From NCBI GenBank assembly GCA_008632985.1, contig QPGO01000277.1, positions 50,471 through 70,470 on the forward strand: a stretch of 20,000 nucleotides of DNA, read 5' to 3'. This DNA is from Psammoneis japonica (lineage: Eukaryota). Shown here one piece after another: positions 1 through 20,000 of the stretch. The position numbers and the translations under genes were made by a program. Under the pieces are notes generated by a model that searched no databases, had not been told where the DNA came from, and worked only from the letters and a program-made list of their open reading frames with translations. The first letter of the stretch is position 1. Every line of letters starts with the position of its first letter.

Positions 1-47
1 AGCCGGACCGCATCTGAGGATCGCAGATACCCCACGTTTTTGACACC

Positions 48-2904: not shown

Positions 2905-3137
2905 CGCTGCTTCCAGTTTCGTCGCCCTTTAATATCTGCTGCACTTTACTCTGCAGTGCGTGAAGGACAGAAATTCTGCTCGACTACAGCATCAACCGTC
3001 ATTGCGTGTGTTGCTGAAGGAAGGCAGAAATCGGAAATCTTTCGGCGGATTTGACGTTACACAAATATTCAGAACTGAGGTTTTTGATACGATTTTAAAA
3101 AAATTCAATGATGGACTTGTTCGACTCGCTGGGACAA

Positions 3138-3149
3138 ACTGACGTCAGT
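3138..3149. promoter_or_regulatory. Palindromic CRE-type bZIP site ACTGACGTCAGT (TGACGT core) in the divergent P4H/NEET promoter
   Basis: Perfect 12-bp palindrome, with a second TGACGT at 3052-3057. TGACGT is the known aureochrome bZIP core. Function is inferred. Confidence 0.4.
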
Positions 3150-3315
3150 GATGGCAAAAAAATCCATCGAAACAAATCCGACATCGACGACCCATCGCAT
3201 CGATCAAATCCATCATCGCCATCTATCTTCCACCAACCAACTCCATAATTCTACGTTGCTGACTTGTCGCAGGTTGCAGAATACATCATAGTTTTAAGCC
3301 ACCATCAGACCAACC

Positions 3316-3612
3316 ATGAAGTCCTTTATCATTTCCGCTTTTCTTTTGTCGCAGGCAGCCGCCTTTACCTTTGTTTCTAGTCCCAGGGTTATTGAAACGA
3401 GGCTATTCGAGAAGGGAAAGATCAACGACAAGATTGACCTCGACAGCCCAAAGGTTGCTACCATGGAAACCCTTACTGGCAAGACCAAGAAGGTGTACTG
3501 CCGCTGCTGGGAGTCTGGAACCTTTCCGCTGTGTGATGGCTCGCACATGAAGCACAATGAAGCCACTGGTGATAACGTTGGGCCTCTTATCGTCACCGTC
3601 AAGGAGGAGTAG
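3316..3612 (+). CDS. CDGSH iron-sulfur (NEET-type) protein, plastid-targeted
   Basis: YCRCWESGTFPLCDGSHMKHN is the CDGSH 3Cys-1His [2Fe-2S] motif, followed by GDNVGPL. The N-terminal signal peptide ends AAA|FTF (ASAFAP-like) and is followed by a short transit peptide. Confidence 0.93.
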   Translation: MKSFIISAFLLSQAAAFTFVSSPRVIETRLFEKGKINDKIDLDSPKVATMETLTGKTKKVYCRCWESGTFPLCDGSHMKHNEATGDNVGPLIVTVKEE

Positions 3613-4251
3613 ATCTTCAAAGCTACGAAGATATTGTCGCTGAATGAGTCATTACTCAAGAATCAAAGACATGTTTTGCTTTTTATCTGAAGGAATTTCG
3701 ACGAACTAGAGAGCACTACCTAAATGCATACCCATTGAATCTTAAAGTTGTGTCTACAATGGATTCTATCAATGAAATCTAGAATGTTTCGTGAAAGAGT
3801 CACCCACGCTCCTTCCATACCGTTGACTCGTTCACAGCTGATCGTACATTGCATGGCATGATAGAGGAATGAGACCCTCAGAGTAGATTTGTGCGGATCT
3901 ATTGCTTTTCAGTTTTTTGAATTGATTTCGTTTTGGCTCGACCGAGAACTTTTTATATCGTCAAACGAACGATCTTCGATCACACAATCACGACTGATTT
4001 AGTGTTTGTCTGACTGAGAACTCCCAAGCAAGCAATGCATTATCCTGTTTTAAACAAGCAGCGTGAATGAACGCTCTCATTAAGTTTCGGCCTCGTTTGC
4101 AGATGTCGCAGGAACCCCTACTGTATCTCCAGTAGTAGTGAAACGGCAAGGAAATATTGGCTGGCAATGTTGTTGAGCTCCATCTTTATGCACGCCGCGA
4201 CACACCATAGACTACGAAACGAGCAAACTTAAACAAGATTGGAACGAAGAA

Positions 4252-4485
4252 CTAGTAGAACACATCTAGCTAGGACAAACACCAACTAGTAGTACCGGTA
4301 GTTGCTGGATACCATTTTACCTCACATTAGAAGCCCTACAAGAGAGTAGAAAAACTATATGAAACAAAGTACAGTGGGCTAGCTAGAATACAAGGATCAC
4401 TAGAGACAATGTAGGGCCTACAAGTGAATTGCGCATGATTCTACTAGAGCTACTAGTCTAGAGGTAGCCTCTCATCTCTAGCTAG
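4252..4485. repeat. CTAG/TAG-rich low-complexity intergenic tract
   Basis: 12 CTAG tetramers in 234 bp (4252, 4266, 4270, 4286, 4379, 4383, 4400, 4444, 4453, 4458, 4478, 4482), and only about 2 CpG. Confidence 0.75.
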
Positions 4486-4547
4486 AGTAGAGACCATCCT
4501 GAATCCGTGACTCCCATTCATGATGTGCTTCTTTTTGCCAAAACTGA

Positions 4548-4673
4548 GTCGTGATTAGCCATCTTCACGACTTAAAAATCTCTCATTTCAAGCGATTCAC
4601 GACCAAAGTTTTGTTCGAAATCGTTCCAAAATCGGAAATTCGCTAAATCGTGATCGATAATTGCCACGTGGCA
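4548..4673. promoter_or_regulatory. Motif cluster: 4x TCGTGA/TCACGA plus palindromic G-box TGCCACGTGGCA
   Basis: TCGTGA/TCACGA near 4549, 4565, 4597 and 4648. Perfect 12-bp palindrome at 4662-4673, about 110 bp upstream of the ATG at 4783. Confidence 0.45.
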
Positions 4674-4782
4674 GTCCCGTTTTCCCAAGTCCCACTTCTG
4701 TCTGACACTCTCTCTTTTTGTCATTTCGTTCTGTTCTCACAATTCAAGTCACAAGACGCAAAACAGAATACAGCAGCCTATC

Positions 4783-5094
4783 ATGTCTAAGGGAATCGCA
4801 AAAGCCATCGCTGAGACCGTTTGGGGAAAACCGGCGTTCAAACCGAAGGAGTTCATCGTGGTTGGAGTGGATCAAGAAGATGATGTTAACCGCTGGAACG
4901 ACGACGAAAAGCCGACTGCAGAAGAGCAATGGTATGGAGTCTCAAGCACAACCCAGCCCGAGGCAGTAAAACATGGCGAACGGGTCAATGCGGTCAAGGA
5001 GTTTACTGTCGTCTCTTCGAATTTTCAACCAACTGAAACCTGGGAAGAAGAAGTTCGCACTCCCAGCGAGTTATGGTACGGAGACTACAATTGA
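4783..5094 (+). CDS. Small acidic hypothetical protein with two internal KEFxVV...WYG repeats
   Basis: 103-aa ATG-initiated ORF with an internal repeat conserved at protein level (KEFIVV..W..T.EEQWYG / KEFTVV..W..TPSELWYG). Confidence 0.7.
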   Translation: MSKGIAKAIAETVWGKPAFKPKEFIVVGVDQEDDVNRWNDDEKPTAEEQWYGVSSTTQPEAVKHGERVNAVKEFTVVSSNFQPTETWEEEVRTPSELWYGDYN

Positions 5095-5275
5095 TTTGTG
5101 GCTTGAACTCAAGTAGATTGCGGTGGCATGCAATAGCCACCTTACACGCTAATGGAAAAATAAATAAAAGCTTTCTCAATCTTCTTTGTTTCTCATAGTA
5201 AGTAGTCTTACAAGGCTTTGGTGGTCTCAGCGCACGGTGCTGCAAAGCGAACCGCCGCAATGACTTAGATCTGGT

Positions 5276-7892
5276 CTAAATCGATGGACCGAGCATCAAC
5301 CCCACAGCGCTCTCTTGTTCCAATCGACTGAATCTCCCAAGCTGCGTCGAACGGATAGCTCCCACCGGTGTTTGAACCTCAGTAGGGCGGTCCAATTTCT
5401 TCCGCTCTGAATTTTCCCTGACAAATGCCCTTGTCAACCCTTTGCACAAGGCTTCTCTGTCGGGATCTTGTTCAGCCTCTTCCGTAATTCCCCATTCTCA
5501 TCGAATAACTTTCCAGTCATAATATCACCCTGCGTAAAACGTGACATGACAACATGGATTCCGTCCACATCAAAGGACGAATGGAACCTTTCGAACGAAT
5601 CTCCGTTTTGATGTCGGTCTTCATCTCGATGAAGAATCTGGATTGCCAGTTTCAGCAAGTCGTTGTACATGCACGGGTGTGCTAACGGAGCCACAACATC
5701 GCTGTCGTCTTCGTCGGCGGTTTCTTCCAAACACGCCACAATGTTGCGTGCCATTGCTTCATCACTTTTCTCTTCAAAAAAAGCGTGGGCCACATCAAAG
5801 ACGTGGATGAGCAACTTGACTTCTGGAATGCGCTTGGCAAACGATGAGTTGTCATCTTCACGAATGGATTCTACCATTTCTTTGGCAGCATCGTAGTCCC
5901 GGCCCATAGCCTCGGATACTTCCGTTTTCACCAAGCTCTTCAGGAGCGCTTGGGATGCCGTGACCAGGTACGTCGTCAAGAACCCCCCACAGACTCCTGA
6001 ACTTAGGACACGCTGCCAAGCACTCATGCTATCTCCCTCGTTGCTGGCGTAGACATACTTTTCAAACTCAATACCTTGCAACAGCCAATGAACTGCGCCA
6101 CCCGGTCGCTTGGCCTTGACATGATGACGGTATCGGGACAAGACCATACCAACACACCCGTCGAGTACATGAACACACTTGCGCTCCACCAGCTTTCGGC
6201 AATGATTCAACAAGCTTTTTGTTTCAACGTCCGTTTGTGGGGCGTACCGTTCCAATGTCTCTCCGAGGGTGGCCATGATTCGAACATCGCCACGGGGCGT
6301 TGCGTAGGGCAAAAGGATGCGGGTTGACAGAAGGATGGCCAAGTCAGCATAAGCAGGGTTGAGAGAGGACAAAATCGCTTCTGACGCAGACAGCAAGAGG
6401 TCCGTTTGGATGTTGGAAGAAGTATCGTCCGGAGGAGGCATGATGTTTGCTTCATTGAGCAGACTGGAGAGCAGCGCCGTCTGAAAAAGAAATGAGTAGT
6501 AGTGGCTGGGTGGTAAGCACGATGAAACTTCAATGTAGAATCAAGATAGAACAATGATGCAGAGTATCTTCTCACCAATGTTTCTGGCAAGGCGGCTCCA
6601 CTACCGCCTCCATAGGTATGAAGAGCTTGAATAACCTGACCGGCATTTCGTTGCATTACGTTCAGAACCAGGTTGTCAAAATCTTCCGCGGTATCTTCTC
6701 CGAATCCTAGGCTCCTGATGCGAGATGCCCGGACATGCATATCCTCGGGTCGGAGAGTGGGACGCAGGTACAGCAGTTCTGAACAGAGAGCTTCTCCCCA
6801 ACATGAAAAGTCAGCATTGTCAAACTCGCCACGCAAAATTTCGAGAATAGGCTGCAACTGCGGAACGCGTCTTGTCAATGCCGCAAGAGCTCTCGAACCA
6901 ATCAGGTAACGATGCCACGTACTATGAGCCTCCTTGGCAGCATGTGGATTGTAGCTGAGCGGCAAGTCGTCAACCGAACTGGAACTGTTGTTTTCCCACA
7001 GCTTGTACGCCGAAGGCGGCAATCCGTCCAGCACGGTTTCGTTTGATGATTCGTCCTCCACATCGCTGTTAAAACCTGTATCATTCTGATCACTTCGTCC
7101 TCCGGGGAGAGGGGCCGACTGCAAAATTGCTTGCAGTTCTCTGAAGCTTTCCCGGTCTTGTGCCAGTGTAGCTGCGTGATATTCATCCAAAACATCACTA
7201 CCAGCCATTGAAAAGGACCGTCGACAAAGTGAGTGGCGACTCAACAGGGACCAGGCGTCCTCGACACATCCGCGAAGAACAAGTATCTTGATCATGTCCC
7301 AGTATAAATCGAACTGTTCTGGCTGTGGCGATTGTAAGATCTCCTCCATGGCAGACTCATTGGTATTTGCCGCCTTGAACGCATCCTCCATATGATGGAG
7401 ACGCAGATAGCGTACCGTGTCGGCTGTTAGAGATCCTTGCATGGACATCATGTCTTCGAATTCTTCAGACGGCGGCGTTAGCAGATATACATCGGACACG
7501 TGCACAACAGCATAGGCGACCTTGAGGAGCTCCAAACTAGTCGGTCTGCCGTTTTCTTCGCCGTTGTTGGGTGCGTCGTCGGTAGAATCATCTTCTTCCC
7601 ATCCACTCAGACAGTCGGATATGATTTTTCGATAAGATTTACAGAGCTCTTTGATATTCTTCCATTGTCCTCGAGGCTTGGTTGCATAATAAGCTTCGTG
7701 TGCCTCCGCCAGCAGCATCAGAGCTCTCTGTTCATGCTTGTTGCATCCAGCACCATCGTCGGCGAGAAACGTGTCGAATTGTAACTCGCCACCACCCTCA
7801 GCGTTTATCACCAACAAGAGAGACGAGGGAGATTGAGGATCCCAAATCACGGGCCGCTGTGGTTGCGATCCAGATGAAGACGACGACGCCAT
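5276..7892 (-). CDS. NUP85: Nucleoporin Nup85; 2 exons, apparent frameshift near the C-terminus
   Basis: Exon 1 is 7892-6576, the GT-AG intron is 6575-6481, and exon 2 starts at 6480 in frame with ORF 5434..6441. Nup85-like segments YWDMIKILVLRGCVEDAWSLL, ILEILRG, WGEALCSELLYLRP and GGAVHWLL. A natural-looking C-terminus (REALCKGLTRAFVRENS...GPSI*, stop 5278-5276) lies in another frame, with the shift at about 5460-5520. Confidence 0.8.
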
Positions 7893-8077
7893 GGTGCACC
7901 TCTCTGTGGAAGGCGGCGGCAGAGCGCAAAAGATCTGCGTAGAAATCGTACTGAAGCTTTACGTAGGAAAGCAAAGCAATCGATCGTAGGCTCGCGCGCT
8001 CGTGAGACTCCATCGAAGGACGCAGGACGCGGCAGCACAACTAACAAAGCTCAAAGCCAAAGCGGAAAGCGGCGAGG

Positions 8078-8695
8078 ATGGCATCGATGTCGAAATGCGA
8101 AATTGAAAATGCATCCAATACGATCTCAATCGGAATGGCCACTCCCATCAACGAGTCTATGAGTTCATCGGAAATCACCTCCGTCAGCTTGGCTGTCAAA
8201 GCCACCAGCAGTCGTGCTGGAGACTTGACAATGCACCCGGAGGCGTTGGATTCCACTTCGCGATGCTCTTTTTTGCAGCCGCAGTCGCCGCTAACTTCGG
8301 AGCAGGAGCATTCCGTCACCTCCACTACGAGCAACGATTTAACTTCGTTGTTATCCGGTGAGGATTACTTCAAAGTCTCTCCTGCTTTTGTCGCGACGGA
8401 AACCCACAAAATGCTTTTGGACTGTGTTCGAAAGGGTAACAAGTGGCAGGAGGATTTGGAAATTGTTCAGGGTCTTACCGAGGCTGAATCCTGCGAGTGC
8501 TTCAGTGTTGCCGGAAAATATTTGCATTCCAATGTCTTTCCCGAGGGTGCTACGATCACAAAGCTCTTTCGTCACGCCAAAGCAGGGTGGGAACACCTTA
8601 GAAAGGTGGATGAACTCGCAAAGAAGTATCCGCAGGCGTTTGTCGACATAAATCGCCAAGCACTTGCGGAGGGAAAGCGAATGGGGGACTTTTAG
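8078..8695 (+). CDS. Hypothetical protein (Ser/Thr-rich N-half, globular-looking C-half)
   Basis: 205-aa ATG ORF, divergent from NUP85 and convergent with the next gene. No family recognised. Confidence 0.65.
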   Translation: MASMSKCEIENASNTISIGMATPINESMSSSEITSVSLAVKATSSRAGDLTMHPEALDSTSRCSFLQPQSPLTSEQEHSVTSTTSNDLTSLLSGEDYFKVSPAFVATETHKMLLDCVRKGNKWQEDLEIVQGLTEAESCECFSVAGKYLHSNVFPEGATITKLFRHAKAGWEHLRKVDELAKKYPQAFVDINRQALAEGKRMGDF

Positions 8696-8811
8696 TACGT
8701 GTACCAGGTATAAATTCGTGCTCTCACCGAGAAAACTGAGCGCACGGAAAAATAGGGGAGAATATTATCGAGTCTGTTGACAAATTGTAAACGTTCAAAG
8801 GATTATGCTGT

Positions 8812-10617
8812 CTATTTTGACGCGGTTTCCGAAATGGCAAACTTTAGCTCCGCAAGAAGCGCGCCAGATGCACCTAAAAACACACCAGAGAATGATTCGA
8901 CGTTTGTCGCGTTACCTGCCGGTGTTGCAGCATCTTGAATATCATCTTCAATCGACATTTCCACTTCTTCTGCAAGGTCCATGACTCCTAACCGGTTGCT
9001 CAGCTCTTGCAACAGATTTGCTTGGTCCCGCTCGTTGGCAGCTGATGACTCTGCAAAGCTGTAGTCAATCTCTGCCGCTCTGGCCGGCGCCTGCGACTTG
9101 GAACCTTTACCCGAAAACACAGCAGTTTTGTTTTTCAGAGTGTCAGAAGGCTGGAGTGGAATCGGTACATTCGATACTTGGTCATGACCCAAGTCTTCAT
9201 ACTGCGTCGGACAAACTTCCTTAGATACGTTGACCTCAGCCCTTGATTCTCTCTTGTTGCCTTTCCGCTTTTCGGTATCGATGCCGTCACTGTTAAACTT
9301 GGCAAGAACATCATCTCTTGCCAGCTGATGGATATCCATTGCATTTCCAACATGTTGACCAACTCGGCCGAACCACTCATGCATGTCGCCGGATTCTTCG
9401 TTTTTATCAGTATTACAAGCATCCTGAAATGCCCACAATGCAACGCGAGCTGCTTCTAGCTCCAAATGCATATTCTCCAAGTACTTGAAAACAATTCTAG
9501 ATTCCAATGTTTGCGGTTTCTTGGGTGCAGGTGAAAGGACGCTTTCAACATGCAGTTTCGTCTCTGCTGCCATCCACGCGGACTCTTCAAGTGCGGCTTC
9601 CAGAGTTGACACTATAGTCAAGCCATGCAATCCGATCGGGGAACCCAATATTGAAAGAACTTTGGACAGCACATCTTGAAGCTGTTTTCGAGATGAATTC
9701 AGCATGGATAGCGTGATTGTCGTTGGCTGTTTCTCATTTGAAATCGAGTCGTCAATGCTCTCGTCCAATCGTACCAGCAGCGATTCAAGAGATGAACGTT
9801 GCTCCACCATGGCGCGCCAAATCAAGGTTCTTGCGCGTTGAAACGTTACCGAGACCCTGACGGTAGCTTTTCCGTGGGTATCCTTGGTTCTGTGCTGGCG
9901 TCCCAGCGCTGCTCGTTCAACACGAGCAACGCAACGAGACGATGGTCCTAAACCAAGCTGTATTCCCGTTCCGACTCGAACAGTTTCCGCGGCGCGATCA
10001 AATGCGAGCAAGAGTTTTACGTGCGCCTGGGTGAACCCTATCACCCTCTCAGATTGTTCTTTTAAAGTGTTTTCATTGCATTGTTGCGACGTGAACGAGC
10101 TTCCGATATAATTTGAAGTAGTTTCGAGCAGAGTGGCTGACAGGGGAGGAGCTCCGACAGATCCCAATAAAGCAGACATTTGCGTCCGACATTGATGACT
10201 TTGCTTGCACAACATGTTTCGATAATCCGAAGAAATAGCAGCGTCCTTGCGTTTCGTTTTCGAATCGAAATACTTCCATACAAATAGTACAGCCAGACAC
10301 ACGGCCGCATATCGGATCCATCCATGCGGTTGGTAGCAAGAGGCATTTTCCAGTCTCTCGTAGTTTGAACAAAACCTTCCAATGATAAAACCTATCAAAC
10401 ATCCTGAAATCACAAGCACGTACATATTCAAAGTCGGCCGATTCCCAAACAACGCGTCCGTCGAGACAAGCGCTTTTTTGTCCTTCGGTTCTTTTTTTTG
10501 TGTGGTGGTACTAGCCACATGATGTTGTGTCTGGACACTAGTTTTGTGCAAAAAATCATGTCGTTCGTCACCATGATCGTAAAGGTGTTGCTCCAACTGA
10601 GGATTCAAACCTAACAT
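8812..10617 (-). CDS. Two-TM membrane protein, vezatin-like
   Basis: About 600-aa uninterrupted ORF. Two hydrophobic helices (YVLVISGCLIGFIIG; YAAVCLAVLFVW), an N-terminal NPQLEQHLYDHG segment, a helical middle, and C-terminal LLQEL/LLAELK. The vezatin call is from remembered architecture only. First ATG is at 10617. Confidence 0.6.
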   Translation of the reverse strand: MLGLNPQLEQHLYDHGDERHDFLHKTSVQTQHHVASTTTQKKEPKDKKALVSTDALFGNRPTLNMYVLVISGCLIGFIIGRFCSNYERLENASCYQPHGWIRYAAVCLAVLFVWKYFDSKTKRKDAAISSDYRNMLCKQSHQCRTQMSALLGSVGAPPLSATLLETTSNYIGSSFTSQQCNENTLKEQSERVIGFTQAHVKLLLAFDRAAETVRVGTGIQLGLGPSSRCVARVERAALGRQHRTKDTHGKATVRVSVTFQRARTLIWRAMVEQRSSLESLLVRLDESIDDSISNEKQPTTITLSMLNSSRKQLQDVLSKVLSILGSPIGLHGLTIVSTLEAALEESAWMAAETKLHVESVLSPAPKKPQTLESRIVFKYLENMHLELEAARVALWAFQDACNTDKNEESGDMHEWFGRVGQHVGNAMDIHQLARDDVLAKFNSDGIDTEKRKGNKRESRAEVNVSKEVCPTQYEDLGHDQVSNVPIPLQPSDTLKNKTAVFSGKGSKSQAPARAAEIDYSFAESSAANERDQANLLQELSNRLGVMDLAEEVEMSIEDDIQDAATPAGNATNVESFSGVFLGASGALLAELKFAISETASK

Positions 10618-10857
10618 CACCCGAAGCTCAATAACACGGCCTCTGTTACCTCATGGTGATCATACCATAGAGGCAAACTGAGCGATGAGCGATGAAAGCA
10701 AAACGGAATAAAAAATGGAAAACGGCATCATTTTCGCGATTTCCCGGTCGACACACGGTCGGCGGGATTATGCGCGCGCGCGCGAGATTGACGACTCACT
10801 CGAGCTGGACAGAGCAGTCGAAGAAGTCGTCATGAAGATCTGACGAAAAAATCTTGG

Positions 10858-11005
10858 CAGCGTCCTCATTTTCAATTTGCCTTTCCACCATGGGCAATCC
10901 GCTCCGCGGCCTGCGAGTGTTGGATCTTTCCCAGCGTCCTCATTTTCAATTTGCCTTTCCACCATGGGCACTCCGCTCCGCGGCCTGCGAGTGTTGGATC
11001 TCTCC
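10858..11005 (+). repeat. 74-bp direct tandem duplication spanning the CoA-transferase start codon
   Basis: Copy 1 is 10858-10931 and copy 2 is 10932-11005, with 2 mismatches (gggcAatcc vs gggcActcc region; gatctTtcc vs gatctCtcc). Confidence 0.95.
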
Positions 11006-12222
11006 CGTGTATTAGCAGGACCATGGTGCACCATGCTCCTTGGAGACGCTGGTGCTGACGTTATCAAGCTTGAACGAACCAAAACTGGAGATGAAACGAG
11101 AAATTGGGGACCACCGTTTGTCAACGGCGACGTTTCAACGTACTTTTTAAGTGTCAATCGAAACAAGAGTTCAATCGCGGTAGACATTAAAACAACGGAA
11201 GGATTGGATCTATGCCGTCGTCTTGCAACAGAGTGGGCGGATGTACTTGTCGAGAATTTCAAGGTTGGAACAATGGAGCGACTGGGTCTCAGCTATGAAA
11301 CATTGAGGCAGGAGAATCCAGGTCTCGTTTATTGCAGTATTACTGGGTTCGGAAGCACGGGACCACTGAGCAGTCGACCAGGATACGATGTCATCATCAG
11401 TGGGATGTACGGTCTCATGTCAATCACAGGAGAAGAGCATGGAGATCCCGCCAAGGTGGGAGTTGCCATTACAGACGTGGTGGCGGGTACTCTGGCGCAC
11501 GGAGGTATTCTTGCAGCCTTATATCAACGAAACCGGACCGGACGCGGTCAACAAGTGGAAACATCACTCATGGAGACGCAACTCGCCTCCTTGGTCAACA
11601 TTGCCTCCAGCTCACTCAATAGTCCAGAGGGAACGCCGCCTCCACAACGATGGGGTACCGCACACGAGTCCATTGTGCCTTACCAAACTTTTCCATGCAA
11701 GCACGACGACGGTGAGGAAAAGCAATACGTGGTTGTTGGAGCTGGAAATGATTTACAGTTTAAAAAATTGTGCAACGCCATGGGCATGGATGAGGTGGCA
11801 AGTAGCGATCGATTTAGAACAAACGCGGATAGGGTGAAAAATCGCAACGAGCTTGTTGCTGTGCTAGAAAAGAGATTTCTTCAAAAGACACGAAATGAAT
11901 GGGTAGACTTGTTGAGTGACAAGGGTTTCCCGATTGGACCCGTTCGATCCGTTCCTGAGGCGTTTGAATGCGAACAGGCCATTCATCGTGGCATAGTGAC
12001 AGAGATGAACCATGTTGTTGCGGGAAGATCAAGTTGCCAAGGACTCCCATTTTGTACGTGGGCGAGTCAACAGACAATTTGGATAAACCAAAACCACCTC
12101 CCATGCTTGGAGAACATACCGAGGAGATCCTCACCAACGTTCTAGATATGACTCCTGGGGAGGTTCGAGCATTAGAACGAGCCGGGGTGATCGAGTGTTG
12201 GCGGCAACAAGAGCCAAAGTAG
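10964..12222 (+). CDS. Family III CoA-transferase (CaiB/BaiF, SUGCT-like); frameshift near 12022-12026, possibly a young pseudogene
   Basis: PLRGLRVLDLSRVLAGP, NRNKSS, ADVLVENF, YCSITGFG, GYD and the catalytic-Asp region GVAITD. The family C-terminus PPPMLGEHTEEIL...GVI continues in a second frame to the stop at 12220-12222. Confidence 0.9.
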
Positions 12223-12431
12223 CATGTTCAATGTGCGTGCCACCATGTTATTCTAAGCGGTTTGATCCTTTTGAAGAATGCGAAATTGATGTTGTACACA
12301 AGGCAAACGGGGGGCGCCCTTTGTTCCACGCCCCGTATAATCATTTCTCGCGTTGGAGTTGTCGTATCTTTGTGCATCCGGACAAGCAGAGTCGACTAGA
12401 CCCAAGGGTAGTATAGTCTGATGTGAAAAAA

Positions 12432-13450
12432 TATGTTGTTTGTGCAATATCCGAGAATCTTGACAAGGAAACACGCGTCACGTCGCTAGATGCCGGATCT
12501 CCAACATCGTTGCTCATTACAAAGCAAGAAAACGGACAAGTGCACGCAGAGACGCGTGCCTAACTCGAACTATTGCAGCATGACGAAGTACTCTTGAAAC
12601 AAGGAAGACGAAGCTCGCAGCTAGTAAAGAAAGTTTTATCACTTCGCACGCAGAAACAGGGTGCAGAGAATCCCATTGACGCCGACAGGAACCGACGGCG
12701 TCATAAAAAACACAGGTCTACATCTCGGCACAATCGAAATTTCAATACAACACCATTCGACCGAGAACCATCTCATCATGATTTGCTGGATAATTCAGAC
12801 GACGACGGCGAAGACATTCCACCTAGCGGACACATGGCTGGTCCATGTAGCACTTTGATCCAAGAGCGTATTTCGACAGAACCAACGGCGCCGCACTCCT
12901 TCAGCGAATTACACCATCTGATACCTGCGACACGTTGGAAGAATACATTCTCCTTTCATCTGCCCATGCAATTCCGCTCTATAAGCGATTGTGCCTTGGC
13001 TCTTAATGCAAACCTTGCCAAAAATTTCATCCAGCTCAACGTCAATGCCGGTGGAAGCAACCGAATGAACATTTGCGATCGTCGTAACTACACTTAGAGC
13101 TTCTTGCAAATGCCAAGACTGGTAAACTGCCCAACTCACTCTTATATGCAACATGACTTAGGTTGGCAGTCGGTTACTGTGAACCAATCTCATGGCGCCA
13201 CCAATGCGAATGGAAACAATCAGTACTCAGTTCGATCTCGTCGATACCTTCTTGGGGCGACGAAGATTTTTTATGTAATACAATCATGGAGCATCTCGTT
13301 GCACTACCCAATGTCGAGGAAATGCTATCAAGGTCACCATCCCAATCCATGGAAACATGGAAAGAACAGGGTTAAACTCAAGAAACTCCTCGTGTGGTGA
13401 GCAAAGGGATCTCTGCTCCAACATGCATCAAGAGTATTCTTGCGGCCAGG
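12432..13450 (+). pseudogene. MSH4: Degenerate MutS-family gene, MSH4-like (N-terminal/core portion only)
   Basis: Pieces across frames: VCAISENLDKETRVTSLDAGSP..KQENGQVHAETRA*LELLQHDEVLL; RAYFDRTNGAALLQRI..EEYILLSSAHA; RMNICDRR..LELLANAKTGK; VGSRLL*TNLMAPP..ETISTQFDLVDTFL; EHLVALPNVEEMLS; SKGISAPTCIKSIL. Stops at 12561, 13004 and 13180, plus several frameshifts. No ATPase domain seen. Confidence 0.78.
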
Positions 13451-13628
13451 TGTGTGCTCTTTCTCAAATTTTACAGCTTCCTTGTTGGCCTAGTCATTGA
13501 AGAGACTCTCATCTTTGCCTGCATCGTCTTGTTCAAACCATTAACTCATACTGCAAGCAGCGACCTGATCACCAGTCCGCCTCGATAGAGCTTAACACAC
13601 AGAGCTAGCCGTACGGTAGCAGCAAGGT

Positions 13629-13904
13629 CTACTGGATCGGATGATCTGTCCGTAAGCTTCCCTTCTTCTTCCAGGATGGAAAAGATGGAGGAGGATCATC
13701 GTTCCGGGCTTTGAAGTGGCCGGCTTCTTCAAATAGTTTGTCAAACATGTTCAAGTGCGTTCTTGATATAACCATGTCGCAAAAGATGGTTGGTGCCAAC
13801 GCCAAAAAAGCACCGAGAAAGTACGAAAAGATGGTTCTGAATCGTGAAATGTCGAAAGTAGGGCGACGTCAAGAAAGTGGTCCTTATTCCCTCTTTTTGG
13901 TCAT
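13629..13904 (-). pseudogene. Possible 5' remnant of a type II membrane protein gene
   Basis: ATG at 13904 reads MTKKRE*GPLS*RRPTFDISRFRTIFSYFLGAFLALAPTIFC..., i.e. a basic N-terminus then one hydrophobic stretch, with two early stops. Confidence 0.25.
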
Positions 13905-14328
13905 TAGATAGGGTCTGCGGGAAATCGCGGATTGAGGCGAAAAACGCAAAAAATCTATAGCAGAAATATTAGAAGCAGTGTGATAACACATTGCATCTAG
14001 CAGTAGCACCGGTACGATTTCAGCCTAGAGATTACGAACTGTGCTGTTTTACAAAAAGAGAACAGTGCCCAGGCCTTTATAGAAATACTCATCATTGCTT
14101 TTGAGGTTGCCTTGCGCACTATCATGTTCTCAGAATCGGAAACTGCGGCATGTCGTGAAAGCCGTCGAGTCCCTGCGCCGTCGCCCGAGCATTGGTGCTG
14201 TGCCAGGCTTGACACCTTCAACTGGTGGATACCAATTTGCTATGGATGGCACCAACTTTGGTTCACTATCTATTCGCAGGGCTAGAATAAAGAAAAGTGA
14301 TGTTTCTAAAGAAAATTGTCCTATCTAA

Positions 14329-15277
14329 TTATAGATCCTTGTAATCTACATTAAAAAGCGGTTCACCATTTTGAATCGCAAGCTGTGTTATGACAGCTAC
14401 AGCCCGAAATACATCGGCATGCTTCGATAGCGGTTTGTGGCGAAACCTTTTCTCCAGAATTGTCCAATTTTTGAAGCGTTCGTTGCACGTCTCCTGTCGA
14501 TTAAGAGCACGCCTCTGCATTTCTTCCATCTCCTTCGGGTTTGCAAAACTGCTGGGGCACTTAACATAGATGGGGGACTCACCCACGTACCCATCGTCAG
14601 CCTCTACGCGTTCCCCCTTGTCCAGTTCCGTCTTCAATGCCGATCGAAAAATGTCTAAGTCGTTGTACACGCCGGGCGCAAAGGGCCCATTAATCCACAC
14701 AATGTGACCGGTCAAAATGCATGCTGCTGCTTCGTAACGAAGTCCGCAGTCGTTGAATTTATGAGAGTAAAACTTCCTGCCGTGATTCGGGACACGAAAG
14801 TCTGTTCCGTCCACAGTAACTAGACAATCGTTTCCGACGTCACCAGTGCGGCGATTCTCCCAAATCATCTGGGCAGAACAAACAACAACACAAACAATGC
14901 GGGTGAGAATCAATTTTTTGAAACATGTGGAAATGTTGTCGCAATTGGGCACTTGCCAAGTGTGGCTCGAGTGATGCAATAGCCTCAATCATTGGCCACT
15001 TCCACGTTCGGAAAGTTTTTTCGTCGACTCCCCCAGCTTTGCCGGCAAGGTCAGTTTCCTTGCCATCAGATTTCAAAAAATTAAGTGCCCACAGCATGTG
15101 GCAGGCATTTGCTCCGTGGGGCAGCACGTCGTGGTGGACGAGGAGGTTCCACAGCGCGAGAGCCACGATTGGGCCGCAACCAAAAAACTCACGAAAACGC
15201 CTGTCCTCGGTCATTGTGGCGCCAAACTTCTTGTTGCCTCCATTCATCATTCCACGCCCCAAATTCATGAGGTCCTG
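14329..15277 (-). mobile_element. PIF/Harbinger-like DDE transposase gene (DDE_Tnp_4-like), 2 exons, 5' end abutted by an LTR
   Basis: Exon 1 (15277-14957): RRFREFFG..HMLWALNFLK..GVDEKTFRTW. Phase-0 intron 14956-14869 with GCAAGT donor and CAG acceptor. Exon 2 (14868-14329) carries an intact triad VTVDGTDF / VEADDGY / RQETCNERFKNW plus YSHKF..GLRYE. Confidence 0.88.
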
Positions 15278-15662
15278 TGCAGCGTGCGACTGTTGCACAC
15301 ACATTTATGATTACATGTTATTTGTGTGTCAATCGCACCACAGTCGTGGATGCGCACAAAGGACAGAACGATCACACAGAGTTGATCGGATGTCGAGAAT
15401 TGCAAATACGATCGATTGACGATGTTGACATCTTACGTGTCAACAGCAATCGCATCCGGACAATCTGTTGTCACGAATGTATTCTCCGAAAGGCCTTTTG
15501 TCTGTAGAAGCAGTGCAGAAGCTTTAGGCCATTGAGAACTCGTTCGGAGAAACCAAAAATCACAGAGCAAAATTTAATCTCATAATTTCCACTTTTCGTG
15601 CACCATTCTACTTTCGTTTACACTCGTTCTTCGAGCACAGTGCATTGTGCATGCACACCACA
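15278..15662 (+). repeat. 5' LTR (about 385 bp, TG...CA)
   Basis: 15278-15637 aligns without gaps to 19641-20000 (25 mismatches in 360 bp). The end at 15662 is inferred from the terminal CA and a degenerate inverted repeat. Confidence 0.88.
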
Positions 15663-15789
15663 GAAGGTAAAAAGCACGGAAAATGAAAATTTCAACTAAT
15701 GTGCCTTTGCAAATTCTTCTATAAACAGGAACGAATCGCATCAGTTCTGCTGGAATCGATTTCCGAGCGGAAGAAGCTCAAGCCGAGCA

Positions 15790-18700
15790 GTGCCTCAAGA
15801 TGGAACGCTGTTTTTCGTCTGCCAGACAAGAGGATTCGCTCCAATGCGGTCTGTTCCAAGCACCCAAGGATCAAGGGCTCTCAAGTACACCGCATTGTCA
15901 AAAAATCTACACCAAGTCATGGTTGCAGAGAATGCAAGTTCCGAGTCGATCAGGTCCGAGAAATGCGTCTGGCATGCAAGGAGAGACTGTTGGAGAGTTT
16001 TTGCAGACCGAATCAACGAGCCTCGAGTCCAAGAGCAAGATGGAACAGTTGGAAAGTACCTCAAGCGTCTCACAACTCATGCCCTCCGAGGAAATGCACT
16101 TCAGAATCAGGGAAATTATTTTCGAGACGACCTGAAGAAACCAGAGCCGCTCAACAGCAAGAAAGCCTCTGACAGACCCAAGAGGTCAACGAGGAGAGTC
16201 TACACGACTCTCAGATGGATTCTAAGTCGAATCTAGCGGGAAACCGAGCGCTGATTTATCAGCTGTCACTCGCACCGCAAGGATGGCAGCATCAGCCCAC
16301 TGTCCAAAATGTTGAACTGCTGGATCATGCCCTTGACGAGCTGATTGAGGTTTGAGTCGTCTAGAGGTCGGCAAGGACGTCTGTGACAAAAAAACACATC
16401 AATTCGGGCTCTGACAGCGCAGTTGATTCCACAATCAAAAAGGTTCCAATTTTGGTTCCAAAAATGGTCTCCTGCATGGTGCCAGAACAATCCAAAGTGA
16501 ATGCAAGGTCTTGTCTTTGAAAAAAGAACACCTGCATCACGGATTGAAGCTGTTCTAAAAATGAACTGTCAAAAGAGTGCAAGGGTGACTCTGAAAGAGA
16601 CCCAAAAATGCGCCGTTCAAATGGCAATCGCACGCGGTCGCGTCGCGACAACGAAAATGCCGCTCGCAAAAAAAGAGATGAACGTCATGATTGATCAGGC
16701 GGTTCAAAAAAATGCTCAAAGCGAGTTCCTTGAACAAAGAAAAAGAGCATGAGGGCAAAGAATCAGATTCTGGTGCCCTCAGTGAAGAAAAATGCCAATT
16801 TGATCGGATGATCCAGACTGAATCCGAAGAACAATGTTGGTCCATTCACAAATTGCATGCTTTGCTGGACATCAGGAAGCCTAGAAAAAAGGCAGAAATA
16901 ATTCACACCAGTCCAGGAGTCATCATTTATGTGAATGCTTCCTTGGGAAAGGAGAGAAAAAAAAAAGCATCTGCGTGTTCCTGTCGACAACGGAACATCG
17001 TCAACCACAATTTTGCGCAAATTCGTGCGAAAGTTGAGAACACAAGAATCCGCCACCAAAAACTTGGGAAACCAAGGGTGAGCTCTTTACGACTGATGGT
17101 AAACACCAAATTCAGTTCTCACTGTGCAAAATTTAAGGCACGCTGATGTTCAAACAGCACATGTTGAAAACACCAAATTTTCTTCAGGTTCAAATGACAT
17201 GATCATGGGACGCGACTCAATGTCCAGTCCCTGCAAGTCACATTGGACTACGCAAATGAAGAAATCTAATGGGAAGAAGCAATTGCCTTATGAAGAATGT
17301 TCATGCGCTCTTCGATGCCGATGTTTTCAAGCTGAAAACCGATCACATTGAAAAATGTGACGCCGTGAACAGAGTCAATGACGGAACCAATGGCCCTCGA
17401 CTCACATTGTCGCGCCATCGATCTTAATCAAGTGACAACTGCGGCGATGCATCTAACCCAAATGAACACAACCAACTCAATCTTCTTCTTGAGAGGTTGA
17501 AATTGTTTTGAAAAGTTCCTCAGACAAATGCATGGGAAGCATCAGTGGATCTCATCGTGGAAAATCTGACGCGATTCCACGACGCGTGAGAACCTTCTCC
17601 TGTCACAGTCTTTGGAGGCGTCCAATCAAAAGGAGTTTGACCCATTGTGAAAGATTGAAGTCTCAAGAATGAAGTTGCTCTGAATGAGTCGCTCTGAGAC
17701 ACATTGTCCAAAGAAAACAGGTCGAGTTCGACCGCACCCGACACTCAGAAGCTCAGCATGAGGTTCACACAGGTGGTGTGTCCTTTGCCCAACATTCAGG
17801 AAATGCTGTTGAAGCAAGAACGTTTCACACATGCAATCCATTTGATTCAAACATGGAATGCCACCATGTCAAATAAAAAAAGCACACGTCGTGCTCACAC
17901 GAAAATCATGCCGTGGGGAGAAAATGAGCACTGTGGACTTCCAATGAGAATCTGTGGAGCCCCAGATGTTTTTGCACAACACTTGAGTGAACTCACAACA
18001 GGTTTGAAGTTGTCAGAACGACTGTGTGTGATCGTTTGTGCCTGACAAAAGTAACTTCAAAATGTCGCCTGTGCAAGTGACAGCTTAATGCGGCATTCAA
18101 ACGACTGGAACAGTCGCTTGGAAGGTCAACAACAAAAGTCCTTCACTGTTTAACTTGAAATAAACTATCAAGACTTCCATGCGCAACGACATGCAATCGA
18201 TTGCAAAGAAAATGGAGGCGATTCAAGCAATCGCAACACGAGAAAAACGCAAAGAACACTGCGACATCTCGTTGTCATACGTTGCTGTTGTCGAGACATG
18301 CAGTCTCAACGATCTCCTGTACAATGCCAGCCAAATTCACCTCAACAAAGGTCAAACGGCAAAAGCACAAGTACGGAACAAAAAGTCTCCGAAAATGTGG
18401 AGCGCATCAAATCAAAAACCACATTGTCATCATGCACGGATTTCAACATCACACGTTACAACAGAAAAAAAGAACTTCTGTCCACAGTGAAAACACTCAC
18501 AAAATTCCGAAACATGCTGTTTGGCCAACAGATTTGTGCATGTGCGGATCACAAGACACAACGGACAAAGTCATGCGTTGACAACTTCAGTCCCGAATTA
18601 GAATGCAACGAGGGCAAGGCGAACATCGTCGCGACAGACGCGATCAGCCGACTTGCCACAGAAAATTGAATCCTACGACAATGTCCTGCCGTTAAAACGG

Positions 18701-19620
18701 GGTGAAGACATTCCCTCCAAATTGTCGGACGCGACATGTCATACGAACACTTTTCGTGGAGGCGAGCGAGATCGAAAAATGCTCATGTCACAAGGACAAA
18801 ATCGCCTTTTTAAAGGATGATTTAGGAAAAAACAGTGACAGATTGGTGCACATTATACGCGTCCACTTCACACTGGCAAAAGACAATCTCACAACACCCG
18901 CACGGTTGTGTTGTACAATGTACGAGGCAAGACATTAAAATGTGCATCATGTCGACACATGAGATGTGCCAAAGATCTAGAAAAAGAAAAGAAAAATGGA
19001 CATTTGTCCACTTGGTGCACAAAACCAGTGCCTTCGGAATGACAAAACAACACCGGCATGTCAGAAAGAAACGTCCAAACAACGATTAAAATCCAACTGA
19101 TAGATGGTTGAAGTGCAAAAAAAAAAATCCACAATGGAATTCACAACCATCACAGGATTGATTGTCAAGACGAAATGGTCACAATGTCTTTGACCATCGT
19201 TTGTCATTGCTTGTGAAACGTGGCAGTGCAGCAGAGCAATGTGGCACACAAAGTGAGCCCGCCAAACTGCATGAAATCCACAAGTGAGCAAGTGAACACC
19301 ACAATTGAGAGCGTGCATTAAGCACTGGGCACGATGCCATGTACAATCGATGTCAGGAAAAACACTTGCTCCAGGACAATTAGTCCTTGTGTTCATGTCA
19401 ACAAGAACGTCAATGAGAATGCTCGACGCAATGCTGTGTGTGTGCACATTAAGTGAGAAACAAACAATGTCACTCTCAAAAGACATTCGGAAATTGGAAC
19501 GGCCCCATGTTGCCCATGCAAAACAACAACAGTCATTGCCAATGGCACAATGCAGTGAAAGTGGAGACATCATTGACACTGTCGATGTCCGTCGAACAAT
19601 CCACTTGCAAATGACTCCAA
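15790..19620 (+). pseudogene. Fragmented gag-pol
   Basis: Gag-like ALQNQGNYFRDDLKKP. Protease LRVPVDNGTSSTTI (16971-17012) and DMIMGRDS (17196-17219). RT CPLPNIQEML..FTHA..DSNMECHHV..PWG..LPM..PDVF (17779-17975). RNase H ELLSTV..FRNMLFG..CADHK..GKANIVATDAISRL (about 18470-18655). Integrase NPQ..IESVH*ALGTM and PGQLV (about 19270-19390). Many stops and frameshifts. Confidence 0.9.
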
Positions 19621-19629
19621 TGTGCAATT

Positions 19630-19640
19630 AGGGAGGCGAA
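19630..19640 (+). other. Polypurine tract
   Basis: AGGGAGGCGAA immediately 5' of the TG start of the 3' LTR. Confidence 0.8.
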
Positions 19641-20000
19641 TGCAGCACGCGACTGTTGTGCACATGTTTGTGATTGTGTGTCATTCATGTGTCAATCGCA
19701 CCACAGTCGTGGATGCGCACAAAGGACAGAACGATCACACAGAGTTGATCGGATGTCGAGAATTGCAGGTGCGATCGATTGACGATGTTGACATCTTGCG
19801 TGTCAACAGCAATCGCATCCGGACAATCTGTTGTCACGAACATGTTCTCCGAAAGGCCTTTTGTCTGTAGAAGCAGTGCAGAAGCTTTGGGCCATTGAGA
19901 ACTCGTTCGGAGAAACCAAAAATCACAGAGCAAAATTTAATCTCATAATTTCCACTTTTCGCACACTGTTCTACTTTCGTTTACACTCGTTCTTCGAGCA
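19641..20000 (+). repeat. 3' LTR (truncated by the window end)
   Basis: About 93% identical to 15278-15637, with no indels. Confidence 0.93.

Follow-up and report, generated by a model that had tools for sequence, protein, structure and literature searches.

The question raised by this locus is whether the cysteine, histidine, and serine codons at conserved positions of a dead retrotransposon record a directed loss of the dinucleotide TpA. The window analysed is a stretch of 20,000 nucleotides from Psammoneis japonica (contig QPGO01000277.1). A sequence-only reading of it had compared the codons with canonical Gypsy Pol motifs and proposed that each change was a single TA>CA or TA>TG step, with TpA as the ancestral state.

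The element and its TpA-poor domain

Positions 15278–20000 of the window are the remains of a Ty3/Gypsy-type LTR retrotransposon in the nuclear genome of a diatom, and a DNA-transposon remnant adjoins them. The features are as follows.

14822..20000, no strand: TpA-poor, CpA/TpG-rich domain, defined by the TA-density change point and dinucleotide rho; runs beyond the window at its 3' end
14822..15277, minus strand: Harbinger/PIF-type transposase remnant, N-terminal HTH-like part; outside the LTR, TpA-poor
15278..15637, plus strand: 5' LTR, comparable part (direct repeat D1); begins TGCAGC, 12 TA left
17181..18447, plus strand: protease-reverse transcriptase remnant, aligned to residues 46–464 of the relative P0002
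17196..17219, plus strand: protease motif DMIMGRDS (DMIMGRDL or DMIIGRDx in relatives), with TCA (Ser) at the relatives' Leu
17844..17870, plus strand: RT motif DSNMECHHV (DLNMGYYHI in relatives), with L263S TTA>TCA, Y267C TAC>TGC, and Y268H TAC>CAC
18451..18666, plus strand: C-terminal part of RNase H, aligned to P0002 501–583; contains ACADHK at 18538–18555
19289..19354, plus strand: possible integrase remnant, a weak lead only (P0002 848–869; score 29.6, 22 codons, one stop)
19630..19640, plus strand: purine-rich run AGGGAGGCGAA, read from the sequence, directly 5' of the 3' LTR
19641..20000, plus strand: 3' LTR, continuing beyond the window; 5 TA left

Two direct LTRs that are 93% identical (15278–15637 and 19641–20000) bound the element, and AGGGAGGCGAA resembles a polypurine tract and may have served as one. 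Frameshift-aware alignment placed the Pol remnants in the order PR-RT-RNaseH-INT (17196, 17440–18447, 18451–18666, and 19289), the domain order being taken from the Pfam matches of P0002 (RVT_1, RT_RNaseH_2, Integrase_H2C2, and rve). The HMMER matches of the element's read-through translation, P0001, were Gypsy-type Pol proteins, with P0002 the best (E = 1e-16); nearest to the element are Pol proteins of environmental origin that carry RVT_1, RT_RNaseH(_2), Integrase_H2C2, and rve. The element is 34% identical to P0002 over 471 codons, and the protease-RT alignment (score 199) contains 17 frameshifts and 5 in-frame stops. Homopolymer errors were rejected as the source of the frameshifts, since 2/17 sites fall at runs of 5 or more and 15/17 lie away from them. 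P0002 residues 465–500 have no counterpart in the RNase H region, where Pfam RT_RNaseH matched weakly (E = 0.006); a Pfam search of 20 raw stop-to-stop frames returned this match and the Harbinger DDE domain only. The copy is dead: it lacks some of RNase H and nearly all of the integrase region, and it keeps 72 of 135 conserved residues. The host's ribosomal protein L4 is 80–82% identical to named diatom proteins, and with the Pfam order of P0002 the earlier description of a Gypsy element of a diatom holds.

The codon strings quoted in the sequence-only reading were all recovered: gac atg atc atg gga cgc gac tca in the protease (17196–17219), tgt cct ttg ccc from 17779, ttc aca CAT gca with CAT at 17830, gat TCA aac atg gaa TGC CAC cat GTC in RT (17844–17870), ctt ctg tcc ACA gtg (18475–18489), GCA TGT GCG gat cac aag (18538–18555), and tta gaa TGC (18598–18606). 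The motifs that it had taken as canonical match real relatives (P0002 has DMIMGRDL, PYPIPKIQ, FTYGTSLDLNMGYYHI, ELLAIVETL, and KVYTDHKNL), and the alignment places the element's strings exactly on them; the changes in the RNase H part are I513T (ATA>ACA), T533A (ACG>GCG after T), and Y564C. The claim that each change is one TA step is weaker at two places. For DMIMGRDS no Ile>Met step is needed, because the nearest relative itself reads DMIMGRDL, and YPLP>CPLP is ambiguous because that column, judged by eye in 10 relatives, is split evenly between Tyr (5) and Phe (5).

Analysis of 1-kb windows showed a TpA observed-to-expected ratio of 0.12–0.29 in all five element windows and of 0.42–0.71 in all 15 others; for the 14 windows of 1–14000 against the five element windows, the Mann-Whitney p value was 1.7e-4. 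The maximum-likelihood change point of TA density lies at 14822 (40.3 TA per kb before, 14.6 after), and the loss is thus confined to the region of selfish DNA, with normal neighbours. Over 14800–20000, rho was 0.20 for TA, 1.41 for CA, 1.57 for TG, and 0.91 for CG, and inside the element 0.19, 1.36, 1.67, and 0.86, compared with 0.53, 1.18, 1.14, and 1.01 in the flank (1–14000). Intrinsic UpA avoidance by the family was rejected as the main cause, since 71 intact relatives have a median rho TA of 0.80 and a minimum of 0.54. The clusters of Bigelowiella natans are defined by rho TA of at most 0.43 and rho CA+TG of at least 1.52 in three consecutive 1-kb windows, cut-offs that are 5% tails of another genome; in five consecutive element windows, rho TA was 0.12–0.28 and rho CA+TG was 1.35, 1.27, 1.54, 1.47, and 1.75, with 2/5 at or above 1.52.

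The domain extends into the Harbinger remnant, whose N-terminal part (456 nt) has 2 TA, compared with 21 for the DDE part of that gene (493 nt; Fisher p = 7e-5); rho TA and rho CA+TG are 0.07 and 1.44 in the former and 0.63 and 1.09 in the latter. The N-terminal part aligns to 14 full-length homologues. DDE_Tnp_4 was matched at 14329–14988 (E = 8e-7), an Atlas search gave HTH_Tnp_4 as a lead, and the DDE frame had no match at E ≤ 1e-10 among longer proteins. The N-terminal part keeps 26/30 conserved residues, so that a protein-level test of hypermutation has no power there (1.3 TA-type of 4 changes, compared with 1/3 in the DDE part).

Direction, specificity, and timing of the changes

Codon changes were counted at 135 conserved columns of a frameshift-aware alignment of the element to 11 relatives. 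The element keeps Tyr at 2 of 11 conserved Tyr columns; 7 read Cys or His, and the remaining 2 have a different residue. Seven of the nine lost Tyr codons were lost through a TA>TG or TA>CA transition (5 Cys, 2 His), one through a transversion (Asn), and one in two steps (Thr). The search pattern left 9 of the conserved Tyr columns free to vary; at these, 70 independent metagenome relatives have Tyr in 586 of 602 cells, Phe in 13, His in 3, and Cys in 0. All of these relatives have Leu at columns 263 and 458 and Ile at 513, and Thr stands at 533 in 66/68. TA is therefore the ancestral state, and the direction of mutation proposed from the sequence alone is supported: the two findings that it had named as contrary to it, relatives carrying Cys, His, or Ser at these positions and Tyr codons decaying equally by all types of substitution, were both looked for, and neither was seen.

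Within A:T>G:C changes, mutation is specific to TpA. Nonsynonymous steps of this kind were taken at 11.5 of 31 TpA opportunities compared with 5 of 101 in other contexts (Fisher OR 12, p = 1.1e-5; fractional counts), and the step rate was 0.37 at TpA vs 0.03–0.07 in the three remaining contexts. TpA does not account for every such single-step change: 11.5/16.5 fall there and 5 elsewhere. Both strands are affected, as both products occur at conserved columns (TA>TG 6.5, TA>CA 5). AA>AG and TT>CT steps numbered 2/30 opportunities and CpG-type steps 4/11, and steps that create TA from TG or CA were absent (0/27). Fungal-type RIP was rejected as the main cause on the last count and on the depletion of TpA itself (rho 0.19). 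TA-type steps are nonetheless a minority (11.5/47) of the single-step changes at conserved columns, and ordinary decay has contributed 18.3 G:C>A:T steps, 12.2 transversions, and 16 multi-step changes alongside the 17 frameshifts and 5 stops.

The predicted loss of Tyr and gain of Cys and His were present: over 471 aligned codons, the element has 3 Tyr, 16 Cys, and 16 His, compared with 23, 6, and 8 in P0002. The expected scarcity of TAA and TAG stops was likewise found, TGA making up 91/122 stop codons in the three plus-strand frames of 15650–19640 compared with 252/481 in the flank 1–14000 (Fisher p = 9e-6). Survival of TA depended on extended context; relative to intact relatives, surviving TA per kb was 0.54 for TTAA, 0.27 for TTAB, 0.26 for VTAA, and 0.14 for VTAB (chi2 p = 1.2e-3), and taking the flank within the window as reference gave the same trend (Fisher p = 2.6e-4).

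The LTRs were compared in the ungapped register +4363 (15278–15637 vs 19641–20000). They differ at 25 of 360 sites, every one a transition, and 21 of the 25 differences are TA-vs-TG/CA or CA-vs-TG doublets, with 4 not TA-type. The pairs comprise TA/TG (6), TA/CA (1), and CA/TG or TG/CA (7), together with 2 of CpG type, and 21 CpG are intact in both LTRs. This pattern, with CpG kept, points to TpA loss after insertion and on both strands; the process continued once the LTRs had begun to diverge. In all 7 single TA differences the TA is kept in the 5' LTR (binomial p = 0.016), which needs unequal exposure of the LTRs, gene conversion, or LTRs that are not sisters.

The element family is highly repeated. 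Sequencing run X1 contains 5186 contigs on 13000–20000, 1044 of them at ≥ 99% identity, and 0.54 of the element's words. It was the one run listed as containing the sequence, with no RNA run among the listed ones; runs X2 and X3 scarcely cover the element. Summed word depth, which is not taken as copy number, was ~8,000–15,000 inside the element, 35,000–57,000 on the LTRs, and ~55 on the flank. Another copy in X1 has CAC where this one has TGC in the RT motif. Among the best 40 of 668 rows of differences between this copy and the family, 26 best-supported differences lie inside the element and 6 of these are TA-type; 7 of the same 26 look, by reading, like CpG>TpG/CpA in this copy, in a subset biased against hypermutable sites. 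Among the same best 40 of 668, 7/9 differences between the Harbinger copy and other copies (13976–14297) are TA-type, and TpA-type change is not retroelement-specific.

Independent examples were found in the databases. Protein P0008 has 0 Tyr in 699 aa; at the 32 aligned Tyr of its relative P0018 it has His 16 times, Cys 12, Phe 3, and Val 1, with 39 forward and 2 reverse TA-type changes between the two. P0015 has 0 Tyr as well. A 24-nt word of the LTR had 0 exact matches among the metagenome contigs scanned, and no relatives of the Tyr-free P0008 and P0015 were confirmed in viral contigs.

Mechanism and rival explanations

We consider TpA-aimed hypermutation of the chromosomal element DNA to be the best explanation (probability roughly 0.7), on evidence drawn from a single copy with its pair of LTRs and from distant relatives. 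The A of 5'-TA-3' would be changed to G on either strand, and TA would become TG or, from the other strand, CA. The agent would be a host activity aimed at silenced or selfish DNA. The simplest candidate would be a DNA-directed adenine deaminase, converting A to hypoxanthine (which is read as G), with a requirement for T on the 5' side and a bias against A on the 3' side, and it is such an enzyme that we suspect. The effects are visible in the element: Tyr codons and TAA/TAG stops are lost, Cys and His are gained, and long spurious open frames appear, with ordinary G:C>A:T decay, indels, and transversions superimposed on the TpA loss. The process is probably the same as that measured directly in mutation-accumulation lines of B. 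natans.

Editing before integration would place the changes elsewhere, with an ADAR- or ADAT-like adenosine deaminase acting on retrotransposon RNA or cDNA, its products fixed by reverse transcription, and the chromosomal copy unattacked. The target is indeed a retroelement, and A>G with a 5' U is a preference of ADAR cited in the B. natans preprint (10.64898/2026.01.13.699255). Most copies also seem to share this copy's frameshifts, with few indels among the differences listed, suggesting that much of the damage predates this copy. However, editing of plus-strand RNA gives TA>TG only, whereas TA>CA is about as frequent (5 vs 6.5). LTRs are identical at integration, yet those of this element differ by 21 TA-type changes; with T>C about as common as A>G and the LTRs of one copy differing, ADAR-type hyper-editing fixed by retrotransposition does not fit. 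The same kind of between-copy differences in a Harbinger DNA transposon family, and a B. natans process that acts on integrated single-copy DNA according to the same text (10.64898/2026.01.13.699255), also speak against editing before integration, which we regard as unlikely. General neutral decay, in which a genome-wide context bias against TpA lets an old, unconstrained element drift to equilibrium untargeted, could draw on a flank that is itself TpA-poor (rho 0.53) and on an element old enough for 17 frameshifts. But flank stretches without an open frame of at least 100 aa (2990 nt) have a rho TA of 0.61, so that unconstrained DNA of this genome is not TA-poor. The abrupt drop in TA at 14822, within a single gene (21 vs 2 TA, p = 7e-5), the 21 TA-type vs 4 other LTR differences, and a mutation rate at TpA sites ~7 times that of other A:T sites further make neutral decay quite improbable.

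In error-prone patch repair, lesions in methylated repeats would recruit mismatch repair and a polymerase-eta-like enzyme with errors at A in WA. Such errors at WA motifs form phase 2 of antibody somatic hypermutation. Patch repair would be regional, both-stranded, and linked to silenced DNA, and the raised CpG-type steps (4/11) would supply the lesions; but AA>AG and TT>CT are not raised (2/30 vs 11.5/31 at TA), and polymerase-eta spectra hold many transversions at A:T, whereas all 25 LTR differences are transitions. We think it very unlikely. An artefact of assembly or base-calling, in which long-read base-calling takes a modified base within TpA of repeat DNA for C or G and short-read polishing fails there, would yield a random mix of CA and TG without any CG, which is what was found, and repeats are difficult to polish. 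Against it stand the cover of 13000–20000 by 5186 contigs in X1 (which may be the assembly's source), the other copy with CAC in place of TGC, the 15/17 frameshifts away from homopolymers of at least 5, the same Tyr loss in database proteins from other assemblies, and Illumina mutation-accumulation data that show the process to be real in another alga (10.64898/2026.01.13.699255); an artefact is thus highly improbable. There is hardly any prospect that CpG 5-methylcytosine deamination (CG>TG/CA) is the main source of the CA and TG excess. CA and TG are raised, CpG-type steps stand at 4/11, 7/26 private differences look CpG-type by reading (best 40 of 668 rows), and some relatives in other hosts carry this signature, L034 and L048 for example (rho CG 0.09 and 0.02, TA normal). 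Here, however, TpA is depleted (rho 0.19–0.20) and CpG is not (0.86–0.91), Tyr>Cys/His is impossible from CpG, and the LTRs keep 21 CpG in both with 2 differing and 7 CA/TG doublets, a mix impossible by independent CpG decay. CpG methylation decay was therefore rejected as the main cause, with a minor CpG component (4/11).

Known systems and biological meaning

TpA-aimed hypermutation of chromosomal DNA has one close parallel. In B. natans, Mettrop et al. (bioRxiv 10.64898/2026.01.13.699255) describe hypermutation restricted to TpA in NCLDV and virophage DNA integrated in the genome. Two integrated viral regions gained 231 de novo mutations, of which 230 were A>G or T>C, all on TpA, at a rate ~1000-fold above background in cultured lines, and TpA-poor CDS were enriched for RT and DDE endonuclease domains. 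It is the only report of a TA-to-CA/TG mutation pattern that we found in the literature searched, and it concerns an unrelated alga. The two systems share TpA>TpG/CpA (in B. natans these changes only) on both strands, confinement to regions of selfish or foreign DNA, and perhaps the formation of TpA-poor, CpA+TpG-rich clusters. They differ in host, a chlorarachniophyte (rhizarian) there and a diatom (stramenopile) here, and in target, single-copy viral inserts there and a highly repeated LTR retrotransposon here, apparently with the adjoining DNA-transposon remnant. The depletion here is far deeper (rho TA 0.19 vs 0.45 in the B. natans NCLDV region), the evidence is historical where that from B. 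natans is de novo, and the sparing of TTAA, a 3'-neighbour effect, is not described in the main sections of that preprint. In the literature searched and in a term search of one diatom TE preprint (10.1101/2025.10.24.684338), no report of TpA-directed hypermutation in diatoms was found; most subscription journals lay outside the search.

The likeness to RIP of fungi lies in dinucleotide-specific transitions in repeats, on both strands of chromosomal copies, with coding destroyed and a possible spill to neighbours. RIP is C>T, mostly CpA>TpA, and enriches TpA; here chemistry and direction are reversed, TpA being destroyed with 0/27 TA-creating steps. ADAR hyper-editing and APOBEC3 in animals similarly inactivate retroelements by clustered, deaminase-type transitions, and ADAR shares the 5' U/T preference according to the B. 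natans preprint (10.64898/2026.01.13.699255). They mark one strand, on RNA or minus-strand cDNA before integration; the changes seen here fall on both strands, distinguish the sister LTRs from each other, and recur among copies of a DNA transposon family. The element resembles the Ty3/Gypsy (Metaviridae) elements of diatoms, called GyDi in the literature, in its LTRs, purine tract, and PR-RT-RNaseH-INT order, and differs in that this copy is dead.

A broader proposal, which we put forward tentatively and at slightly less than even odds, is that diatoms may have a genome defence that resembles RIP but has the opposite chemistry. An adenine deaminase directed at DNA (or an equivalent activity) would act on 5'-TA-3', least on TTAA, on both strands of chromosomal transposon copies, and would go on acting after insertion. 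As the signature occurs in a rhizarian alga and in several Tyr-free environmental Gypsy copies, the system would be old and widespread in the SAR supergroup.

The pattern has practical consequences. Where dead transposons lie, gene finders will predict long open frames that lack Tyr and are rich in Cys and His, as with P0008 (699 aa, 0 Tyr), and domain searches miss such copies, Pfam having found almost nothing in this element. Dating by LTR divergence, which a recent diatom TE preprint uses for insertions (10.1101/2025.10.24.684338), is inflated in such genomes, only 4/25 differences here being not TA-type. If real, TpA-aimed mutational genome defence would not be peculiar to one chlorarachniophyte but would operate in diatoms too, and its targets would include ordinary transposons in addition to viral inserts. 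Diatoms are a major, genetically tractable group of phytoplankton, several of which can be transformed, so that a search for the enzyme would be practical if the defence is real.

Layout and composition of the element and its flank

Judged from its sequence, the window is diatom nuclear DNA; the ribosomal protein L4 gene at 48-1193 shows 80-82% identity to L4 of Nitzschia, Cyclotella, Conticribra, Mayamaea and Cylindrotheca, with a top match of 89%. At the start of a long open frame (10844-12145), a 74-nt tandem duplication, 97% identical, was observed at 10858-11005. The following features were annotated at the 3' end of the window.

Features of the element and the adjoining gene
14329-15304, minus strand: remnant of a Harbinger/PIF-type transposase gene (DDE_Tnp_4, E 8e-7), just upstream of the LTR
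15278 to window end: LTR retrotransposon (the element), based on direct repeats and Pol remnants
15278-15637 and 19641-20000: LTR direct repeats, 93% identical, starting TGCAGC
17181-18447: protease and RT remnant, frameshift-aware alignment to residues 46-464 of P0002, the best-matching Pol protein
18451-18666: end of RNase H, aligned to P0002 501-583 (P0002 465-500 without counterpart)
19289-19354: weak integrase remnant, frameshift-aware alignment
19630-19640: purine run immediately 5' of the 3' LTR

Pfam searches with the element's raw frames gave next to no matches. A single-frame translation of 17104-18669 with stops as X (P0001) was compared by HMMER with 1.84 billion representatives, and 43 matches were obtained at E <= 1e-3. 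The best, P0002 (1004 aa, E 1e-16), carries RVT_1, RT_RNaseH_2, Integrase_H2C2 and rve domains in Gypsy order, and its motifs are exactly those that the sequence-only reading had used as canonical. A profile of 11 Pol relatives (A2) was then aligned with the window DNA by frameshift-aware dynamic programming. The Pol remnant contains 17 frameshifts, only two of them near a homopolymer of at least 5, and five in-frame stops.

In the five windows covering 15001-20000, the TpA observed/expected ratio (rho) per kb ranged from 0.12 to 0.29, versus 0.42-0.71 in the remaining fifteen, and the five element windows differed from the 14 windows of 1-14000 (Mann-Whitney p = 1.7e-4). Within the element, rho was 0.19 for TA, 1.36 for CA and 1.67 for TG, compared with 0.53, 1.18 and 1.14 in the flank (1-14000).

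Codon changes at conserved Pol columns

We counted 135 columns that align to a window codon and are conserved in 80% or more of the 11 relatives; 72 of them were retained. The sequence-only reading had claimed that conserved Pol motifs decayed from TA to CA or TG, turning Tyr into Cys or His. Codon tabulation bore this out, as seven of 11 conserved Tyr are now Cys (5) or His (2), with two kept and one each changed to Asn and Thr. Across 471 aligned codons, Tyr/Cys/His numbered 3/16/16 in the window versus 23/6/8 in P0002. The 47 single-step changes comprised 11.5 TA-type (TA versus TG/CA) changes, 5 other A:T>G:C, 18.3 G:C>A:T and 12.2 transversions; another 16 changes needed more than one step. 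With opportunities tallied from the coding sequence of L001, the contig of P0002, A:T>G:C steps were strongly concentrated at TpA compared with other contexts (Fisher OR 12, p = 1.1e-5).

Steps per opportunities at conserved Pol columns
A:T>G:C at TpA: 11.5/31
A:T>G:C at AA/TT: 2/30
A:T>G:C at GA/TC: 2/40
A:T>G:C at CA/TG: 1/31
G:C>A:T at CpG: 4/11
G:C>A:T at GG/CC: 11/49
G:C>A:T at AG/CT: 3.3/35
G:C>A:T that would create TpA: 0/27

The G:C>A:T steps at GG/CC and CpG constitute a second mutational component. In 17181-18666, changes of GG to GA and of CC to TC were frequent besides those at CpG, and Gly was lost in seven of ten conserved columns.

Independent relatives were collected by a metagenome scan with A2, which yielded 78 loci; its peptide pattern demanded [YF]Y, so that hypermutated copies were not retrievable by it. 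In the 71 loci with an open frame of at least 600 aa, median rho TA was 0.80 (minimum 0.54). At the nine conserved Tyr columns unforced by the pattern, 70 loci (L001 excluded as the contig of P0002) carried Tyr in 586 of 602 cases, His in 3 and Phe in 13; with the two forced columns added, the counts were 719 Tyr, 3 Cys or His and 16 Phe of 738. Intact relatives thus encode Tyr, not Cys or His, at these positions.

Some HMMER matches, public predicted Gypsy Pol-type proteins rich in Cys and His, were nearly devoid of Tyr: P0008 (0 in 699 aa), P0015 (0 in 397 aa), P0024 and P0029 (one apiece). The 32 Tyr of the relative P0018 that align to P0008 are replaced there by His (16), Cys (12), Phe (3) and Val (1), and TA-type changes between the two ran 39 forward and 2 reverse. 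The footprint is therefore present in other assemblies. With an open frame of 712 aa, 1.8% Tyr, 4.8% His and rho TA 0.56, the sediment-metagenome relative L044 may be a partly hypermutated copy. Five loci of the same Pol family from other hosts (L034, L047, L048, L026 and L032) nearly lack CpG (rho 0.02-0.18) and have raised CA/TG and normal TpA, presumably reflecting methyl-CpG decay, in contrast to the element. P0013, a eukaryotic Gypsy-type RNase H/integrase protein that NCBI assigns to a metagenome-assembled genome of a cyanobacterium (Gloeomargaritales), probably derives from a contaminating eukaryotic contig.

Differences between the LTRs and among copies

In register, the LTRs differ at 25 of 360 sites, by transitions only, and 23 of the 25 lie within pyrimidine-purine dinucleotide pairs.

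Dinucleotide differences, 5' LTR / 3' LTR
TA / TG: 6
TA / CA: 1
CA / TG: 4
TG / CA: 3
CG / CA: 1
TG / CG: 1

The CA/TG doublets are the pattern expected from an ancestral TA hit in both LTRs with opposite outcomes. Both LTRs share 21 CG and 5 TA. With only two single CpG differences and 21 intact CpG, independent CpG decay is excluded as the source of the seven doublets. TA numbered 12 in the 5' LTR and 5 in the 3' LTR, and all seven single TA differences retain TA in the 5' LTR (binomial p = 0.016), which could mean that the two LTRs were unequally exposed, that one was converted by another LTR copy, or that they are not sisters. We infer that the two are sisters, the target-site duplication falling beyond the window. 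Non-TA divergence between them is puzzlingly low (4/360) beside the badly broken interior.

Other copies were examined in X1, a public sequencing run of the same organism, which contains 0.54 of the words making up the element and shows the element's family to be very highly repeated. We placed 5186 X1 contigs on 13000-20000, with identities from at least 99% down to below 90%. They differ from the window copy at 647 places, and transitions account for 546 of these (A>G 127, T>C 116, G>A 165, C>T 138). Reading by context covers 40 listed of 668 rows. Among the 26 listed element rows, six have TG or CA in the window and TA in the family, and by our reading seven are CpG>TpG/CpA in the window copy. 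One alternative copy has GAA CAC CAC where the window has GAA TGC CAC, so that the leading Tyr in GYY became Cys in one copy and His in another. Other copies differ from this broken one by few indels; the family would thus appear to have spread when it was already defective and non-autonomous.

Extent, sequence context and origin of the TpA loss

By maximum likelihood, TA density changes at 14822, 456 nt beyond the LTR and within the Harbinger gene. The 14822-15277 segment holds two TA (rho TA 0.07, CA+TG 1.44) versus 21 in 14329-14821 (0.63 and 1.09; p = 7e-5). Judged from composition, this segment was likely hit by the same process; the protein is nevertheless well preserved, with 93/100 conserved Harbinger columns retained and 26/30 in the TpA-poor part. 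Compared with 14 diatom and environmental homologues, the Harbinger remnant is nearly intact, with one frameshift, and its N-terminal 456 nt are almost without TA. The element adjoins this gene, which it probably cut short.

TA survival per kb relative to intact relatives was 0.54 for TTAA, 0.27 for TTAB, 0.26 for VTAA and 0.14 for VTAB (chi2 p = 1.2e-3). With strands pooled, it was 0.36, 0.23, 0.20 and 0.12 for A, C, G and T as 3' neighbour, and comparison with the flank within the window gave the same trend. TA thus seems to be protected by a 3' A, on the small counts of 54 surviving TA.

The data establish the direction of change, its TpA specificity within A:T>G:C, its presence on both strands, the LTR divergence and the sharp boundary. 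The TA-to-CA/TG observation of the sequence-only reading is thus confirmed, and its interpretation that TA is ancestral is supported. The changes would be explained by a host activity acting on chromosomal DNA, for which an adenine deaminase requiring a 5'-T would be the simplest chemistry; targeting by chromatin or small RNA would be pure conjecture.

Among the rivals, editing before integration has the best odds. In the Harbinger part 13976-14297, seven of nine listed rows are TA-type copy differences, one a CA/TG doublet, indicating that the process is not bound to reverse transcription. A general neutral bias ranks second; flank stretches without an open frame of at least 100 aa (2990 nt) have rho TA 0.61, so that unconstrained host DNA is not generally TpA-poor. 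Patch repair of the polymerase-eta type is less probable still, followed by an artefact. CpG decay is the least probable: with rho CG 0.86 in the element (flank 1.01), CpG is not depleted.

Our literature search for TpA-type hypermutation in diatoms found none. For an integrated giant-virus region and a virophage region of Bigelowiella natans, a 2026 preprint (bioRxiv 10.64898/2026.01.13.699255) describes 231 de novo mutations, of which 230 were A>G or T>C changes, without exception at TpA, arising at about 1000 times the background rate and in some lines only. It also describes 124 genomic clusters of TpA-poor, CpA+TpG-rich windows, enrichment of RT and DDE domains in TpA-poor CDS, and an ADAT2-like protein as the proposed candidate enzyme. 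B. natans belongs to a different supergroup lineage, and the target in the window is transposons; the signature is the same, and the TpA pattern is therefore its long-term footprint. The window adds a case to a phenomenon first described only this year.
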